Shown here: positions 4,955 through 53,877 of the stretch, piece by piece
Numbering within the stretch: the first letter of the stretch is position 1
Layout: each line of letters opens with the position of its first letter
Sequence record: MH051916
DNA length: 64,000 nucleotides
Direction: 5' to 3' (one strand)
From: Enterobacteria phage vB_EcoM_IME340
Position numbers and translations under genes: made by a program
Notes under the pieces: generated by a model
Seen by the model: the letters and a program-made list of their open reading frames with translations, nothing else
The model's database searches: none
What the model was told of the DNA's origin: nothing

Positions 4955-5051
4955 TTTAAAAATTTTTTCACAAAACTGTTTACATCCCTGTTCTTCCATG
5001 GTACTATACAACTATCAACTACTGATACAGAAAAACAACTTGGAGAATAAA
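4955..5051 (+). repeat. repeated early promoter-leader cassette (PeSL-like), copy A
   Basis: AATTTTTTCACAAAACTGTTTAC...GGTACTATACAACTATCAACT...GGAGAATAAAATG shared with copies at 20805 and 47226. Confidence 0.75.
4978..5009 (+). promoter_or_regulatory. sigma70-type early promoter
   Basis: GTTTAC 4978-4983, -10 TACTAT 5002-5007, upstream A/T-rich element. Confidence 0.65.
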
Positions 5052-44436: not shown

Positions 44437-47133
44437 ATGAAAGAATTTTATATCTCTATTGAAACAGTCGGAAATAACATTGTTGAACGTTATATTGATG
44501 AAAACGGAAAGGAACGTACTCGTGAAGTAGAATATCTTCCGACTATGTTTAGACACTGTAAGGAAGAATCAAAATACAAAGACATTTACGGTAAAAACTG
44601 CGCTCCTCAAAAATTTCCATCAATGAAAGATGCCCGAGATTGGATGAAACGAATGGAAGACATCGGTCTCGAAGCTCTCGGTATGAACGATTTTAAACTC
44701 GCTTATATCAGTGATACATATGGTTCAGAAATTGTTTATGACCGAAAATTTGTTCGTGTAGCTAATTGTGACATTGAGGTTACTGGCGATAAATTTCCTG
44801 ACCCAATGAAAGCAGAATATGAAATTGATGCTATCACTCATTATGATTCAATTGACGACCGTTTTTACGTCTTTGATTTGTTGAATTCAATGTACGGTTC
44901 AGTATCAAAATGGGATGCAAAGTTAGCTGCTAAACTTGACTGTGAAGGTGGTGATGAAGTTCCTCAAGAAATTCTTGACCGAGTAATTTATATGCCATTT
45001 GATAATGAGCGTGATATGCTCATGGAATATATTAATCTCTGGGAACAGAAACGACCTGCTATTTTTACTGGTTGGAATATTGAGGGATTTGACGTTCCGT
45101 ATATCATGAATCGTGTTAAAATGGTTCTCGGCGAACGTAGTATGAAACGCTTCTCTCCAATCGGTCGAGTAAAATCTAAACTAATTCAAAATATGTACGG
45201 TAGCAAAGAAATTTATTCTATTGATGGCGTATCTATTCTTGATTATTTAGATTTGTACAAGAAATTCGCATTTACTAATTTGCCATCATTCTCTTTGGAA
45301 TCAGTTGCTCAGCACGAAACCAAAAAAGGTAAATTACCATATGATGGTCCTATTAATAAACTTCGCGAGACTAATCATCAACGATACATTAGTTATAACA
45401 TTATTGACGTAGAATCAGTTCAAGCAATTGATAAAATTCGTGGGTTTATCGATCTAGTTTTAAGTATGTCTTATTATGCTAAAATGCCTTTTTCTGGCGT
45501 AATGAGTCCTATTAAAACTTGGGATGCTATTATTTTTAACTCACTGAAAGGTGAACATAAGGTTATTCCTCAACAAGGTTCGCACGTTAAACAAAGTTTT
45601 CCAGGTGCATTTGTGTTTGAACCTAAACCGATTGCTCGTCGATACATTATGAGTTTTGACTTGACGTCTCTGTATCCTAGCATTATTCGTCAGGTTAACA
45701 TTAGTCCTGAGACTATTCGTGGGCAGTTTAAAGTTCATCCAATTCATGAATACATCGCAGGAACAGCTCCTAAGCCAAGTGATGAATATTCTTGTTCTCC
45801 GAATGGATGGATGTATGATAAGCATCAAGAAGGTATCATTCCAAAGGAAATCGCTAAAGTATTTTTCCAACGTAAAGATTGGAAAAAGAAAATGTTCGCC
45901 GAAGAAATGAATGCCGAAGCTATTAAAAAGATTATTATGAAAGGCGCAGGGTCTTGTTCAACTAAACCAGAAGTTGAACGATATGTTAAGTTCAATGATG
46001 ATTTCTTAAACGAATTATCGAATTACACCGAATCTGTTCTTAATAGTCTGATTGAAGAATGTGAAAAAGCAGCTACACTTGCTAACACAAATCAGCTAAA
46101 CCGTAAAATTCTTATCAACAGTCTTTATGGTGCTCTTGGTAACATTCATTTCCGTTACTATGATTTGCGAAATGCTACTGCTATCACAATTTTTGGTCAA
46201 GTCGGTATTCAGTGGATTGCTCGTAAAATTAATGAATACCTGAATAAGGTGTGTGGAACTGATGGTGAAGATTTCATCGCAGCAGGTGATACTGATTCTG
46301 TATATGTTTGCGTAGATAAAGTTATTGAAAAAGTAGGTCTTGACCGCTTTAAAGAACAAAATGATTTAGTTGAATTCATGAATCAGTTCGGTAAGAAAAA
46401 GATGGAACCTATGATTGATGTTGCATATCGTGAGTTATGTGATTATATGAATAACCGCGAGCATCTGATGCATATGGACCGTGAAGCTATTTCTTGTCCA
46501 CCGCTTGGTTCAAAGGGTGTTGGTGGATTTTGGAAAGCGAAAAAACGTTATGCTCTGAACGTTTATGATATGGAAGATAAACGATTTGCTGAACCGCATC
46601 TAAAAATCATGGGTATGGAAACTCAACAAAGTTCAACACCAAAAGCAGTACAAGAAGCTCTCGAAGAAAGTATTCGTCGTATTCTTCAGGAAGGTGAAGA
46701 GTCTGTCCAAGAATACTACAAGAACTTTGAGAAAGAATATCGTCAGCTTGACTATAAAGTTATTGCTGAAGTAAAAACCGCGAACGATATAGCTAAATAT
46801 GATGATAAAGGTTGGCCAGGATTTAAATGCCCGTTCCACATTCGTGGTGTGCTAACTTATCGTCGAGCTGTTAATGGTTTAGGTGTAGCTCCAATTTTGG
46901 ATGGAAATAAGGTAATGGTTCTTCCATTACGTGAGGGAAATCCATTTGGTGACAAGTGCATTGCTTGGCCATCGGGTACGGAACTTCCAAAAGAAATTCG
47001 TTCTGATGTACTGTCTTGGATTGACTACTCAACTTTGTTCCAAAAATCGTTTGTTAAACCGCTTGCGGGTATGTGTGAATCGGCAGGTATGGACTATGAG
47101 GAAAAAGCTTCGTTAGACTTCCTGTTTGGCTGA
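44437..47133 (+). CDS. 43: DNA polymerase gp43 (family B)
   Basis: 898 aa; exonuclease motifs (..NCDIEV..), polymerase motifs DLTSLYPSII, KILINSLYG, GDTDSV. Confidence 0.95.
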   Translation: MKEFYISIETVGNNIVERYIDENGKERTREVEYLPTMFRHCKEESKYKDIYGKNCAPQKFPSMKDARDWMKRMEDIGLEALGMNDFKLAYISDTYGSEIVYDRKFVRVANCDIEVTGDKFPDPMKAEYEIDAITHYDSIDDRFYVFDLLNSMYGSVSKWDAKLAAKLDCEGGDEVPQEILDRVIYMPFDNERDMLMEYINLWEQKRPAIFTGWNIEGFDVPYIMNRVKMVLGERSMKRFSPIGRVKSKLIQNMYGSKEIYSIDGVSILDYLDLYKKFAFTNLPSFSLESVAQHETKKGKLPYDGPINKLRETNHQRYISYNIIDVESVQAIDKIRGFIDLVLSMSYYAKMPFSGVMSPIKTWDAIIFNSLKGEHKVIPQQGSHVKQSFPGAFVFEPKPIARRYIMSFDLTSLYPSIIRQVNISPETIRGQFKVHPIHEYIAGTAPKPSDEYSCSPNGWMYDKHQEGIIPKEIAKVFFQRKDWKKKMFAEEMNAEAIKKIIMKGAGSCSTKPEVERYVKFNDDFLNELSNYTESVLNSLIEECEKAATLANTNQLNRKILINSLYGALGNIHFRYYDLRNATAITIFGQVGIQWIARKINEYLNKVCGTDGEDFIAAGDTDSVYVCVDKVIEKVGLDRFKEQNDLVEFMNQFGKKKMEPMIDVAYRELCDYMNNREHLMHMDREAISCPPLGSKGVGGFWKAKKRYALNVYDMEDKRFAEPHLKIMGMETQQSSTPKAVQEALEESIRRILQEGEESVQEYYKNFEKEYRQLDYKVIAEVKTANDIAKYDDKGWPGFKCPFHIRGVLTYRRAVNGLGVAPILDGNKVMVLPLREGNPFGDKCIAWPSGTELPKEIRSDVLSWIDYSTLFQKSFVKPLAGMCESAGMDYEEKASLDFLFG

Positions 47134-47146
47134 TAGAATAAATCTA

Positions 47147-47167
47147 GGGACCTCCGGGTCCCTTTTT
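47147..47167 (+). terminator. rho-independent terminator
   Basis: GGGACC-TCCG-GGTCCC followed by TTTTT. Confidence 0.8.
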
Positions 47168-47225
47168 CATACAAGTAATATAAATCTATACTTAGGAAAA
47201 ATAGGTGATTCTGGACTTCTGGAAT

Positions 47226-47314
47226 TCATTAAAATTTTTTTCACAAAACTGTTTACAAGACTGTTCTTCCGTGGTACTATACAACTATCAACTGATACGG
47301 ATTTGGAGAATGAA
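47226..47314 (+). repeat. repeated early promoter-leader cassette (PeSL-like), copy C
   Basis: Matches copies at 4955 and 20805 including GGTACTATACAACTATCAACTGATACGGATTTGGAGAAT. Confidence 0.75.
47251..47282 (+). promoter_or_regulatory. sigma70-type early promoter
   Basis: GTTTAC 47251-47256, -10 TACTAT 47275-47280. Confidence 0.65.
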
Positions 47315-47695
47315 ATGAAAATCGCTATTTTGGTTATTACATTGGGTCTTACTGGTTGTGTAGCTCAAGGACCGGTAGTAAATCAATCTGATGTAGGAAA
47401 AATTGTAAACTGTTCAAGCAAATTTTATAATCCTAATGTTAAGTGTTATAAAGAAGCTCCAAAACAGACAGTAGAACAAATGCAGGCGAATTTTGACGAA
47501 GCTATTCGTCCAGATGAATCTGCCCAAGCATATCGTAATTCAGATGTAATTACACGCGAAGAAAAAATTGAAAGCTACTGCGCTGAACTTTGGGCAAATT
47601 GGGCTAATAATTACCAATGGCGTACTGGTAAAAATGCTCCGATGGAGTATGTAGTGAATTCTTATAATTCATGTGTAAAAAATTTGACTAAGTGA
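47315..47695 (+). CDS. lipoprotein
   Basis: ATG 47315; signal peptide with lipobox LTGC; track ORF 47126 is a spurious extension through the promoter. Confidence 0.6.
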   Translation: MKIAILVITLGLTGCVAQGPVVNQSDVGKIVNCSSKFYNPNVKCYKEAPKQTVEQMQANFDEAIRPDESAQAYRNSDVITREEKIESYCAELWANWANNYQWRTGKNAPMEYVVNSYNSCVKNLTK

Positions 47696-47702
47696 GGAAA
47701 AC

Positions 47703-47954
47703 ATGGAAACTTTAGTAGCAGGTTCAATTTTTATGGTTTTAGTTTCAGGCGTGTTGGCTATTATTATATACATGCTTCCGTGGTTCATCGCCTTGATGCG
47801 CGGGTCAAAATCGACAGTAGGAATCTTTTTCACATCTTTACTGTTTAACTGGTCAATCATTGGTTGGTTTATTACATTTATTTGGTCAATTGCGGGTGAA
47901 ACTAAAAAATCTGTACAGCAAAATCAAGTAATTATCATCAGAGAGAAGGAATGA
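47703..47954 (+). CDS. imm: superinfection immunity protein Imm (membrane)
   Basis: 83 aa two-helix membrane protein between 43 and 42, as for T4 imm. Confidence 0.65.
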   Translation: METLVAGSIFMVLVSGVLAIIIYMLPWFIALMRGSKSTVGIFFTSLLFNWSIIGWFITFIWSIAGETKKSVQQNQVIIIREKE

Positions 47955-48100
47955 AAAGCAAAATTTTAGCAGTATTGCTTTTAATCTTGATGATTATAAT
48001 AAGTATATACTATAGCGTAGCAGTTCCTTGTATGATTCCAACGCTTATTATAGGTTGGAGTTTATTACTGTTACAAGTTAAATATGAATGTATCAATTGA
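47951..48100 (+). CDS. small membrane protein (49 aa)
   Basis: ATG overlapping imm stop; hydrophobic. Confidence 0.35.
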   Translation: MKSKILAVLLLILMIIISIYYSVAVPCMIPTLIIGWSLLLLQVKYECIN

Positions 48101-48107
48101 GGTTTAA

Positions 48108-48848
48108 ATGATTAATGACTCTATGACAGTTGAAGAAATCCGTCTTCATTTGGGAATTGCATTAAAGGAAAAAGATTTCGTAATTGATAAAACCGGTGTT
48201 AAAACTATTGAAATTATTGGCGCATCATTTGTAGCAGATGAACCTTTTATTTTTGGTGCTCTTAATGACGAATACATTCAGCGTGAACTTGAATGGTATA
48301 AGTCTCAAAGTTTGTTTGTTAAAGATATTCCAGGTGAAACACCAAAGATTTGGCAGCAGGTAGCATCTTCTAAAGGCGAAATTAACTCGAATTATGGTTG
48401 GGCCATCTGGTCAGAAGATAACTATGCCCAGTATGATATGTGTTTAGCTGAACTTGGTCAAAATCCTGATTCTCGACGTGGTATCATGATTTATACTCGT
48501 CCATCCATGCAGTTTGACTACAACAAAGATGGTATGTCAGATTTCATGTGTACGAATACAGTACAGTACCTGATTCGTGATAAGAAAGTCAATGCAGTGG
48601 TTAACATGCGTTCAAATGACGTGGTCTTCGGATTCCGTAATGATTATGCATGGCAAAAATACGTAATAGATAAATTAGTATCTGATTTGAATGCAGGTGA
48701 TTCAACTCGCCAGTATAAAGCAGGTTCTATTATATGGAATGTCGGAAGCCTTCATGTGTATTCTCGTCATTTTTATTTGGTTGACCATTGGTGGAAAACT
48801 GGCGAAACTCATATTGCGAAAAAAGATTATAACGGTGAGTGGAAATGA
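48108..48848 (+). CDS. 42: dCMP hydroxymethylase
   Basis: 246 aa; MI.DSMTVEEIRLHLG..KTGVKTIEIIGASFVADEPFIFGALNDEYIQRELEWYKS.. matches remembered T4 gp42. Confidence 0.9.
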   Translation: MINDSMTVEEIRLHLGIALKEKDFVIDKTGVKTIEIIGASFVADEPFIFGALNDEYIQRELEWYKSQSLFVKDIPGETPKIWQQVASSKGEINSNYGWAIWSEDNYAQYDMCLAELGQNPDSRRGIMIYTRPSMQFDYNKDGMSDFMCTNTVQYLIRDKKVNAVVNMRSNDVVFGFRNDYAWQKYVIDKLVSDLNAGDSTRQYKAGSIIWNVGSLHVYSRHFYLVDHWWKTGETHIAKKDYNGEWK

Positions 48849-49687
48849 TTCAATTCGTAATTCCAAGCTATCAACGCGTAGGGGCAGTTTCTGCCCTTGA
48901 TATGTTTCCGACTGATTATGAACCTCATATTGTAGTACGTGAACACGAAGAAAAAGCTTATTATGACGCTTATGGGTCTAGAGCTAAAATTGTAGTTATT
49001 CCCGATGATGTAAATGGAATTGCTGGAACTCGTAAAGCAATTACTGATATGTATGCAGGTCAACGAATTTGGATGATTGATGATGATACTACTATTCGTA
49101 TGAGTTCAATGCGAAAGAAAGATGATCGTCGCTGCGTAGATAAAATTAATCAGTTAACCCGTGAGCAGTTCTATGAATTGATTCAATACGTTGAAGATGC
49201 CATGGATTGCGGGTATTATCATGGTCATGCTCGTCTACCAATTTTTAAAATTACTTCATCTTGGGGTAATTATCGTGAAAATTCATATGGATTCACGAAT
49301 ACATGGTATGATTTAGGAAAACTTACAACAGAACAAATTGGGTATGGAAAAATTGATTTATGCGAAGATATGTATGCATTTCTCAATTTAATTAATCAAG
49401 GTTATCCACATTTGGCCTTGTTCAAATATCTGGTTGTATCCGGAAAAGCACAAGCTCCTGGCGGATGCAGCTCAATTCGTAGTAATTCTAAACATAATAG
49501 AGCGCTTGAGCAAATCAATAGAGAATTTCCAGAGCAAGCTCGTTGGAAAACATCGAATATTGAAAAGAGAAAATCGTTGGGTGAAGAAGATGAGCCATTA
49601 AAGGTTCTTCGCATGTGTGTTTCGCGCAAAGAAAAATCAGAAGCGTTTCATAAGTTTAATGCTATTCATCCAATAGCAGTTGATTAA
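48845..49687 (+). CDS. putative DNA-modifying glycosyltransferase occupying the T4 beta-gt locus (not T4 beta-gt-like)
   Basis: ATG 48845 overlaps gene 42 stop (ATGA); 280 aa with DDD motif (IWMIDDDTT); position between 42 and uvsX; sequence unlike remembered T4 beta-gt. Confidence 0.5.
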   Translation: MIQFVIPSYQRVGAVSALDMFPTDYEPHIVVREHEEKAYYDAYGSRAKIVVIPDDVNGIAGTRKAITDMYAGQRIWMIDDDTTIRMSSMRKKDDRRCVDKINQLTREQFYELIQYVEDAMDCGYYHGHARLPIFKITSSWGNYRENSYGFTNTWYDLGKLTTEQIGYGKIDLCEDMYAFLNLINQGYPHLALFKYLVVSGKAQAPGGCSSIRSNSKHNRALEQINREFPEQARWKTSNIEKRKSLGEEDEPLKVLRMCVSRKEKSEAFHKFNAIHPIAVD

Positions 49688-53583: not shown

Positions 53584-53877
53584 ATGAAAAAATTTGTTTT
53601 TGCTGCAATTTTTGCTTTAGCTTCTTGTGCTGCTCAGCCTGCTATGGCAGGTTATGATAAAGATTTGTGCGAATGGTCTATGACTGCAGATCAGACTGAG
53701 GTTGAAACTCAGATTGAAGCAGATATTATGAATATCGTTGAGCGTGATCGCCCTGAAATGAAAGCTGAAGTACAAAAACAGCTTAAGTCTGGTGGTGTAA
53801 TGCAGTATAATTACGTTCTGTATTGTGATAAAAACTTCAATAATAAAAATATCATCGCTGAAGTGGTAGGTGAATAA
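53584..53877 (+). CDS. sp: Spackle (Sp) periplasmic superinfection-exclusion protein
   Basis: 97 aa with signal peptide; MKKF.FA.IFALASCAAQPAMAGYDKDLCEWSMTADQTEVETQIEADIMNIV.. matches remembered T4 Sp. Confidence 0.85.
   Translation: MKKFVFAAIFALASCAAQPAMAGYDKDLCEWSMTADQTEVETQIEADIMNIVERDRPEMKAEVQKQLKSGGVMQYNYVLYCDKNFNNKNIIAEVVGE

Follow-up and report, generated by a model that had tools for sequence, protein, structure and literature searches.

The open reading frame (ORF) at positions 47315-47695 of a 64,000-nucleotide stretch of Enterobacteria phage vB_EcoM_IME340 (record MH051916; the whole stretch is called the window here) is identified by sequence comparison as gene imm.1 of phage T4. 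It encodes a predicted outer-membrane lipoprotein, and its family is found adjoining the superinfection immunity gene imm in six genera of T-even phages, despite one relocation and one change of gene order. The identity of the gene and the lipoprotein prediction, taken together, are close to certain. For the function we propose, more tentatively, that Imm.1 may assist T-even superinfection exclusion, or the protection of the envelope, as an accessory factor. Its linkage, timing and compartment suggest this, as do the roles known for Imm and Sp. The gene itself is not a new element, since T4 annotation already lists the ORF and Pfam assigns it a domain of unknown function. What is added here to the annotation is the family-wide lipoprotein prediction, the lipobox-free variants, the extension to six genera, the partnership with imm, and an argument against a receptor-specific role. 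The gene and the predicted parts of its product are as follows.

47315-47695, + strand: imm.1 coding sequence, 126 residues plus stop, starting MKIAILVITLGLTGC; precursor of about 14.2 kDa
47315-47356, + strand: predicted signal peptide, residues 1-14, MKIAILVITLGLTG; lipobox L-T-G-C at 47348-47359
47357-47692, + strand: predicted mature lipoprotein, 112 residues, beginning at Cys15 (predicted to be lipid-modified) with Val at position +2

The window protein is identical to T4 Imm.1 (T4p046, NP_049661.1, UniProt P18057) at 122 of 125 residues (98%), the differences being three substitutions (A9T, A13T and N87S) and one additional C-terminal Lys. The A13T substitution turns the T4 lipobox LAGC into LTGC, and none of these differences carries functional weight. 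The protein matches Pfam DUF5481 (PF17578) over the complete profile (positions 1-103 of 103, E 2.4e-71), which was the only family returned by the Pfam scan, and PHROG 1754, a group of unknown function (E 2.6e-43). The genomic setting agrees with this assignment. The window carries the T-even segment 45-44-62-regA-43-...-42-uvsX, and the T4 RefSeq order 43 - imm.1 (125 residues) - imm - 42 places the gene at the same position, with the same promoter and leader. An earlier reading of this DNA, made from the letters alone (the sequence-only reading), had described a 126-residue protein with a lipoprotein signal and the lipobox LTGC, encoded beside Imm, and in this it was right. It had not recognised the gene as a standard T4 gene, which it is, being present in T2, T4, T6 and several hundred relatives.

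The lipoprotein call combines a PROSITE-type rule, written for this analysis, with conservation across homologues. The rule asks for a charged n-region, a hydrophobic h-region and a lipobox of the form [LVI][ASTVI][GAS]C whose Cys falls no later than about residue 35. Imm.1 passes with Lys at position 2, a mean Kyte-Doolittle value of 2.39 over residues 3-14, and the lipobox LTGC with Cys15. Only two of the 524 window ORFs (Met-started, at least 50 residues, six frames) pass the rule, Imm.1 and Sp, so chance does not account for the Imm.1 match. The homologues of RB69, Melville, JD18, JS98 and VR26 retain the lipobox, as do metagenomic homologues. Across the six genera, where identity falls to 22%, M1, K2, G14, Y38, C89 and C120 are invariant, and Leu12 and Cys15 are each present in at least 90% of homologue sequences. 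The lipobox Cys is found in all full-length homologues of the six genera except those of two metagenomic lineages (P0004 and P0008), whose signals end in AHA before SD and AHA before EG respectively, contain no Cys and are of the ordinary signal-peptidase-I type.

Bacterial lipoproteins are processed by Lgt, LspA and Lnt, and in Escherichia coli the Lol system reads Asp at position +2 as an inner-membrane retention signal. The +2 residue of Imm.1 is Val in the window, T4, T2 and T6, Gly in RB69, and Ala, Ser, Gln or Val elsewhere. As it is never Asp, sorting to the outer membrane is predicted by the E. coli Lol rule, and the rule-based analysis as a whole predicts that Imm.1 is an outer-membrane lipoprotein. 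Cysteines beyond Cys15 occur in even number, two in the RB69-type and four in the T4-type proteins (the latter with Cys33 and Cys44 in addition), which fits the formation of periplasmic disulfides. The N-terminal part of the mature protein contains a conserved segment, VVNQSDVGK...YNPNVKCY, and the conserved N-terminal motifs are VVxASxVGK and YNPNVKxY. Two AlphaFold2 runs, from alignments of 7 and 13 sequences, gave a pLDDT (predicted local distance difference test) of 69 and 67. The confident part covers residues 67-111 of the mature protein (pLDDT ~90), which form a helical hairpin at the C-terminal end and hold the invariant Cys89/Cys120 pair, and the rest of the model, N-terminal motifs included, is of low confidence. 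A Foldseek comparison of this model with the PDB returned nothing below E 2.5, and one with BFVD returned family members alone. A PDB profile search with Imm.1 gave no match, and NCBIfam and PADLOC scans gave sub-threshold noise alone.

The partnership with imm depends on the arrangement of the surrounding DNA, whose features are listed here.

Stop at 47133, + strand: gene 43, 898 residues
47146-47168, + strand: intrinsic terminator after gene 43, with a 7-bp G+C-rich stem and a U5 tail
47226-47251, + strand: A/T-rich upstream block, ATTCATTAAAATTTTTTTCACAAAAC, kept in the aligned cassettes of the window, T4 and RB69
47252-47280, + strand: predicted T4 early-type sigma-70 promoter, TTTACA-17-TACTAT
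47281-47314, + strand: conserved 5' leader, ACAACTATCAAC..., with the Shine-Dalgarno sequence GGAG at 47305-47308, 6 nucleotides before the ATG at 47315
47703-47954, + strand: imm, 83 residues, inner-membrane superinfection immunity protein (PF14373, E 7.8e-16)
47951-48100, + strand: gene 42.1, 49 residues, a small hydrophobic protein of PHROG 3610, named 42.1 in RB32

The start codon of imm lies 7 nucleotides after the imm.1 stop on the same strand, and that of 42.1 overlaps the imm stop (ATGA). No other GTTTAC-type promoter was matched between 47251 and 52714; since none separates the two genes, imm would be read from the imm.1 early transcript. We thus regard imm.1 as the predicted first cistron of an imm.1-imm-42.1 unit. 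Gene 42.1, whose product probably has two transmembrane segments, is an optional third member of this unit, as homologues follow imm in T4, JS98, VR26 and the metagenomic contig L007, and are missing from Melville and from the imm locus of RB69.

Comparison of the 43-imm interval across T-even phages shows that the imm.1 family stays beside imm. The gene is directly upstream of imm in T4, T2, T6, four metagenomic lineages, Salmonella phage Melville (Gelderlandvirus), where it is annotated as a 'putative conserved lipoprotein' (PHROG 1754, E 4e-46), and Klebsiella phage JD18 (Jiaodavirus; PHROG 1754, E 2e-15). In RB69, the imm.1-imm pair is single-copy and absent from the 43/42 locus. It stands instead in the order 61.4, imm.1, imm, sp, where a separate early promoter serves each of the last three genes. 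JS98 (Dhakavirus) and VR26 (Gaprivervirus) have imm immediately after gene 43, and a lipoprotein of 166-167 residues belonging to PHROG 1754 (E 9e-52 and 3e-47, respectively) is encoded just past imm-42.1. No insertion between imm.1 and imm was seen in the loci examined, while insertions were seen between gene 43 and imm.1. Imm-family genes of unrelated small phages have no imm.1-type neighbour.

Upstream, the arrangement is that of a complete promoter cassette placed directly after the gene 43 terminator, as the sequence-only reading had described it. The terminator hairpin, AGGGACC-UCCG-GGUCCCU (47146-47163, with UCCG as the loop and UUUUU following), stands 13 bases past the gene 43 stop and has a folding energy of -13.9 kcal/mol (z = -2.3). 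It is the single + strand terminator-like site in a scan of 46800-48300, and L007, a metagenomic relative, has the same hairpin 3' of its gene 43. The promoter consists of a -35 element TTTACA (47252-47257), a 17-nucleotide spacer that includes a TG (47272-47273), and a -10 element TACTAT (47275-47280). Matches to GTTTAC-N17-19-TANNNT number 25 in the window against 2.7 expected, and all but two are on the + strand (23/25). A leader of the form ...(C)TATCAAC is common to six promoter copies in the window, the imm.1 copy included, where chance would give 0, and an alignment of ~80 nucleotides joins the cassette copies at 4978, 22265 and 47251 with the imm.1 promoters of T4 and RB69. Because the repeated copies share the promoter, the leader and this alignment, 'cassette' is an accurate term.

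The cassette can be compared with the PeSL (promoter-early stem-loop) cassettes of T4-type phages, for which a T4/PST consensus of TTTACW-N17-TAYWAT has been derived (PMC4122927) and which have been described on the flanks of gene 43 (PMC2839356). The predicted imm.1 promoter fits this consensus in sequence and in setting: an upstream stop codon in A/T-rich surroundings, a stem-loop terminator, a Shine-Dalgarno sequence and the start of the downstream gene, many repeats per genome, and a place at the gene 43 border. The gene 43 terminator supplies the stem-loop of this PeSL-type cassette of promoter and terminator. One difference is that the stem-loop here lies ~90 nucleotides upstream of the -35 element, whereas in RB49 and phi1 it is most commonly inside the promoter or overlapping it. 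An Rfam search of 46900-48300 at E up to 1 gave no non-coding RNA matches, and minus-strand ORFs around the imm.1 region are of 37 residues or fewer.

The distribution of imm.1 is narrow in taxonomic terms and dense within it. The DNA of 47100-47720 is matched in 523 phage records, and a tblastn search with the Imm.1 protein retrieved 655 records, ~500 being Tequatrovirus records with at least 95% identity and 155 being Mosigvirus (RB69-like) records with ~33%. A phmmer search over 1.84 billion cluster representatives recovered 6 clusters at 50% identity, and a profile word search recovered 18 clusters at 90% identity. From these searches the family appears to be tiny and confined to T-even-type phages. 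A further tblastn search with the metagenomic proteins P0005 and P0007 gave no match in phage records at E up to 1e-20, a very strict cut-off. The copies of T2, T4 and T6 are 97-98% identical, and the ratio of nonsynonymous to synonymous substitution rates (dN/dS) among the window phage, T4, T2, T6 and SP21535 is 0.05-0.10, equal to that of imm, which indicates strong purifying selection on imm.1. Between genera, Imm.1 identity is 33%, against 62-64% for Imm. This greater divergence of Imm.1 would fit co-evolution with a genus-specific partner, and loose constraint is also compatible with it. In a time-resolved transcriptome and proteome of T4 infection, imm.1 (T4p046, P18057) is classed as 'early-RNA_early-Protein', a class it shares with sp (PMC9697503, supplementary files 4 and 6).

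There are several possible explanations for an early, conserved lipoprotein gene at this location. The sequence-only reading had suggested an envelope or superinfection-exclusion role from the position beside imm, and this is the best-supported inference, given the linkage to imm through rearrangements and the position of the RB69 pair beside sp. Imm and Sp are the known exclusion factors of T4 (PMC7677548). Under this proposal, imm.1 would be transcribed early from the PeSL-type promoter as the first cistron of imm.1-imm-42.1, and the product would follow the rules of lipoprotein biogenesis, with acylation of Cys15 and removal of the signal. The mature protein would then be periplasmic and anchored in the outer membrane, with a Cys89/Cys120 disulfide probably formed within the C-terminal helical hairpin, and may act in the first minutes of infection alongside Imm in the inner membrane and Sp in the periplasm.

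The proposal can be narrowed in two respects. T2 uses FadL and OmpF as receptors, T4 uses OmpC and lipopolysaccharide, and T6 uses Tsx. Because Imm.1 is nearly identical in these three phages although their receptors differ, the target would be one that is common to all T-even infections, for example the incoming tail tip or DNA conduit, or a conserved component of the envelope, and not a particular receptor. Additionally, two lineages have swapped the lipobox for an ordinary cleavable signal, which suggests that the periplasmic domain is the active part and that the anchor would be dispensable, serving for positioning alone.

The sequence-only reading had named a core ORF of known function as the case against its own proposal; this does not apply, as the searchable literature contains no published function for the gene. 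A number of points weigh against an exclusion role. Full-text searching of that literature found no functional study of Imm.1 and no experiment that links it to exclusion, and a supplement of the CRISPRi-ART preprint does not include imm.1. Lipidation and outer-membrane location are predictions, and the structure model is confident for the helical hairpin alone, with no relative of known function by fold or by sequence. T-even genomes are highly syntenic, which leaves just two informative rearrangements, that of Mosigvirus and that of Dhakavirus/Gaprivervirus. PeSL cassettes could also carry adjacent genes along as a group even where these have no function in common. Finally, Lu and Henning reportedly found in 1989 that Imm alone, supplied from a plasmid, excludes T4, and that immunity is lost when imm is interrupted, in which case Imm would not depend on Imm.1 as a partner.

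The main alternative is that Imm.1 has an envelope function unrelated to exclusion, such as counter-defence against an envelope system of the host, stabilisation of the outer membrane or modulation of lysis timing, and that its adjacency to imm reflects co-mobility of neighbouring genes flanked by PeSL cassettes. We consider this somewhat unlikely. PeSL cassettes do flank plastic genes and have been proposed to shuffle them, with the gene 43 borders named among the plastic sites (PMC2839356), and insertions are indeed seen at the 43/imm.1 junction. The separate promoters of imm.1, imm and sp in RB69 also mean that co-transcription is not universal. Against mobility as the explanation, adjacency to imm was kept through both informative rearrangements, while the 42.1 homologue was apparently left behind in RB69, to judge from the JS98 annotation note on RB69 orf054c and from an RB69 locus that has no 42.1. 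The pair moved in RB69 to the side of sp, itself an exclusion gene. A function in lysis of the o-spanin type is unlikely on two grounds, the early class of imm.1 and the absence of an adjacent i-spanin gene. The T4 spanins are pseT.3 and pseT.2.

Two narrower alternatives assign Imm.1 a defined target by likeness to known systems. The more plausible of them, itself improbable, is a periplasmic inhibitor of peptidoglycan hydrolases, similar to Sp or MliC, that would protect the cell against lysis from without, being anchored beneath the outer membrane at the place of arrival of gp5, the tail lysozyme of a superinfecting phage. T4 Spackle (Sp, gp61.3) resembles Imm.1 in being early, periplasmic, helical and Cys-containing, in its expression class, in its position next to imm.1 and imm in RB69, and in a signal peptide that likewise passes the lipobox rule. 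Sp inhibits gp5 in the periplasm and is itself helical and disulfide-bonded (PMC7677548), and a periplasmic, disulfide-containing, helical C-terminal domain is what is predicted for Imm.1. Lipoprotein lysozyme inhibitors exist as well, MliC being in the reference list of PMC7677548. Past the signal peptide, however, the mature parts of Sp and Imm.1 have no detectable relation in sequence or fold, and neither a PDB fold nor a sequence match connects Imm.1 to any lysozyme inhibitor. A demonstrated target, the gp5 lysozyme, sets Sp apart from Imm.1. An inhibitor of this kind would in any case be a special case of the exclusion-accessory proposal and not a true alternative to it.

The other candidate, which we consider highly improbable, is a receptor mask of the Llp/Cor type, which would bind the periplasmic face of the phage's own outer-membrane receptor and inactivate it, so that neither additional phage could adsorb to the cell nor progeny to debris. 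Imm.1 shares with T5 Llp and with Cor of T1 and phi80, which jam FhuA, the build of a small, early, predicted outer-membrane lipoprotein that faces the periplasm and has intramolecular Cys pairs, and these proteins act in exclusion (PMC9586334; T5 annotation). The likeness does not extend to sequence or context. An hhalign comparison of T5 Llp with the Imm.1 family alignment covers 20 signal-peptide columns alone (probability 56%), and the mature part of Imm.1, with 112 residues, is about twice the length of the 61 residues of Llp. The llp gene abuts the gene of the receptor-binding protein pb5, whereas imm.1 lies between 43 and imm and is linked to imm and not to adhesin genes. Unlike the receptor-specific Llp and Cor, Imm.1 is invariant among phages with different receptors, with a dN/dS below 0.1, and the lipid anchor has been lost in two lineages. 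Homology of Imm.1 with T5 Llp and paralogy with Sp were both rejected, as signal peptides alone align.

That imm.1 is a chance ORF or a decaying remnant has a vanishingly small probability. Absence of a known function, and nothing else, speaks for it, and it is contradicted by the low dN/dS, by full-length copies in ~650 genomes, by homologues at about 20-25% identity that keep the signal peptide, the Tyr and the Cys pair, and by the early protein class in T4-infected cells.

Returning to exclusion, a bolder form of the accessory-factor proposal would make Imm.1 the missing outer-membrane-side partner of Imm. The two proteins, optionally with that of 42.1, would form a trans-envelope module whose periplasmic arm intercepts a superinfecting phage at its tail tube or DNA conduit. 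We regard this form as unlikely, but if true it would explain how an inner-membrane protein of 83 residues strands incoming DNA in the periplasm, an effect that to our knowledge has had no explanation since the 1970s. The block of DNA entry by T4 Imm is mechanistically unexplained, and exclusion is told as a story of two genes, imm and sp (PMC7677548). Since imm.1 is conserved, early-classed, predicted to encode an outer-membrane lipoprotein, putatively co-transcribed with imm in T4 and seen to follow imm through rearrangements, it is a cheap and concrete candidate for a third player.

The annotation of the ORF in public records deserves comment. RefSeq entries for T4, T2 and others name it 'iduronate sulfatase'. 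No sulfatase family is among the Pfam matches with E up to 1, and 126 residues are far too short for one; the label is a propagated annotation error. Many GenBank records use 'immunity protein' or 'Phage immunity', and the protein has no match to PF14373 at E up to 1. In SP21535 a TTG-started form of 189 residues is annotated, which overlaps gene 43. This form was rejected because it would span the terminator and the promoter, while the ATG at 47315, with its GGAG, agrees with T4. Altogether, several hundred GenBank and RefSeq records misname the ORF and could be corrected to 'Imm.1, predicted lipoprotein'. Gene 42.1 is affected in another way: it is intact in T4 (L001 4228-4377, - strand; 49 residues with a few substitutions) and unannotated in RefSeq NC_000866, where a gap of 153 bp is left. 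The final ~67 residues of an 86-residue 'hypothetical protein [Xanthomonas campestris]' (P0021, from NCBI/UniRef) are almost the same as the C-terminal part of the Imm.1-family lipoprotein of Klebsiella phages (JD18-type). This entry probably stems from contaminating phage DNA or from a contig assigned to the wrong source, and not from a bacterial homologue.

The intergenic cassette between 43 and imm.1 (window 47134-47314; L015 1180-1431; L007 450-662) is an insertion hot spot. T2 has an extra ORF of 84 residues between gene 43 and imm.1 (T2_046), and L007 has an ORF of 70 residues of the Phage_FRD3 family (frd.3-like) with its own promoter. In HY01, PEC04, CT01 and other phages, the query is matched in two pieces, with spans ~250 bp longer than the query itself. 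The order frd.3-like, imm.1, imm in L007 was considered as a third genomic context and rejected; the contig opens on the 3' end of gene 43, followed by the same terminator, and so represents the usual locus into which the 70-residue ORF has been inserted.

Two further observations concern other genes of the window. Sp (Spackle; window 53584-53877, + strand; RB69 L003 3237-3530) has an N-terminus, MKKFVFAAIFALASC, that passes the lipoprotein rule, and RB69 Sp retains the lipobox Cys (LLAVSC). The protein has been described as a soluble periplasmic protein of 75 residues, with cleavage after residue 22 (PMC7677548). Downstream of gene 42, at 48839-49687 (+ strand), an ORF of 282 residues belongs to the TET-associated glycosyltransferase family PF20691 (E 4e-10). 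T4 has at this position the beta-glucosyltransferase of 351 residues, followed by segA, so the window phage is distinct from T4, and the closest match for this region is Shigella phage SP21535 (Tequatrovirus lutter).

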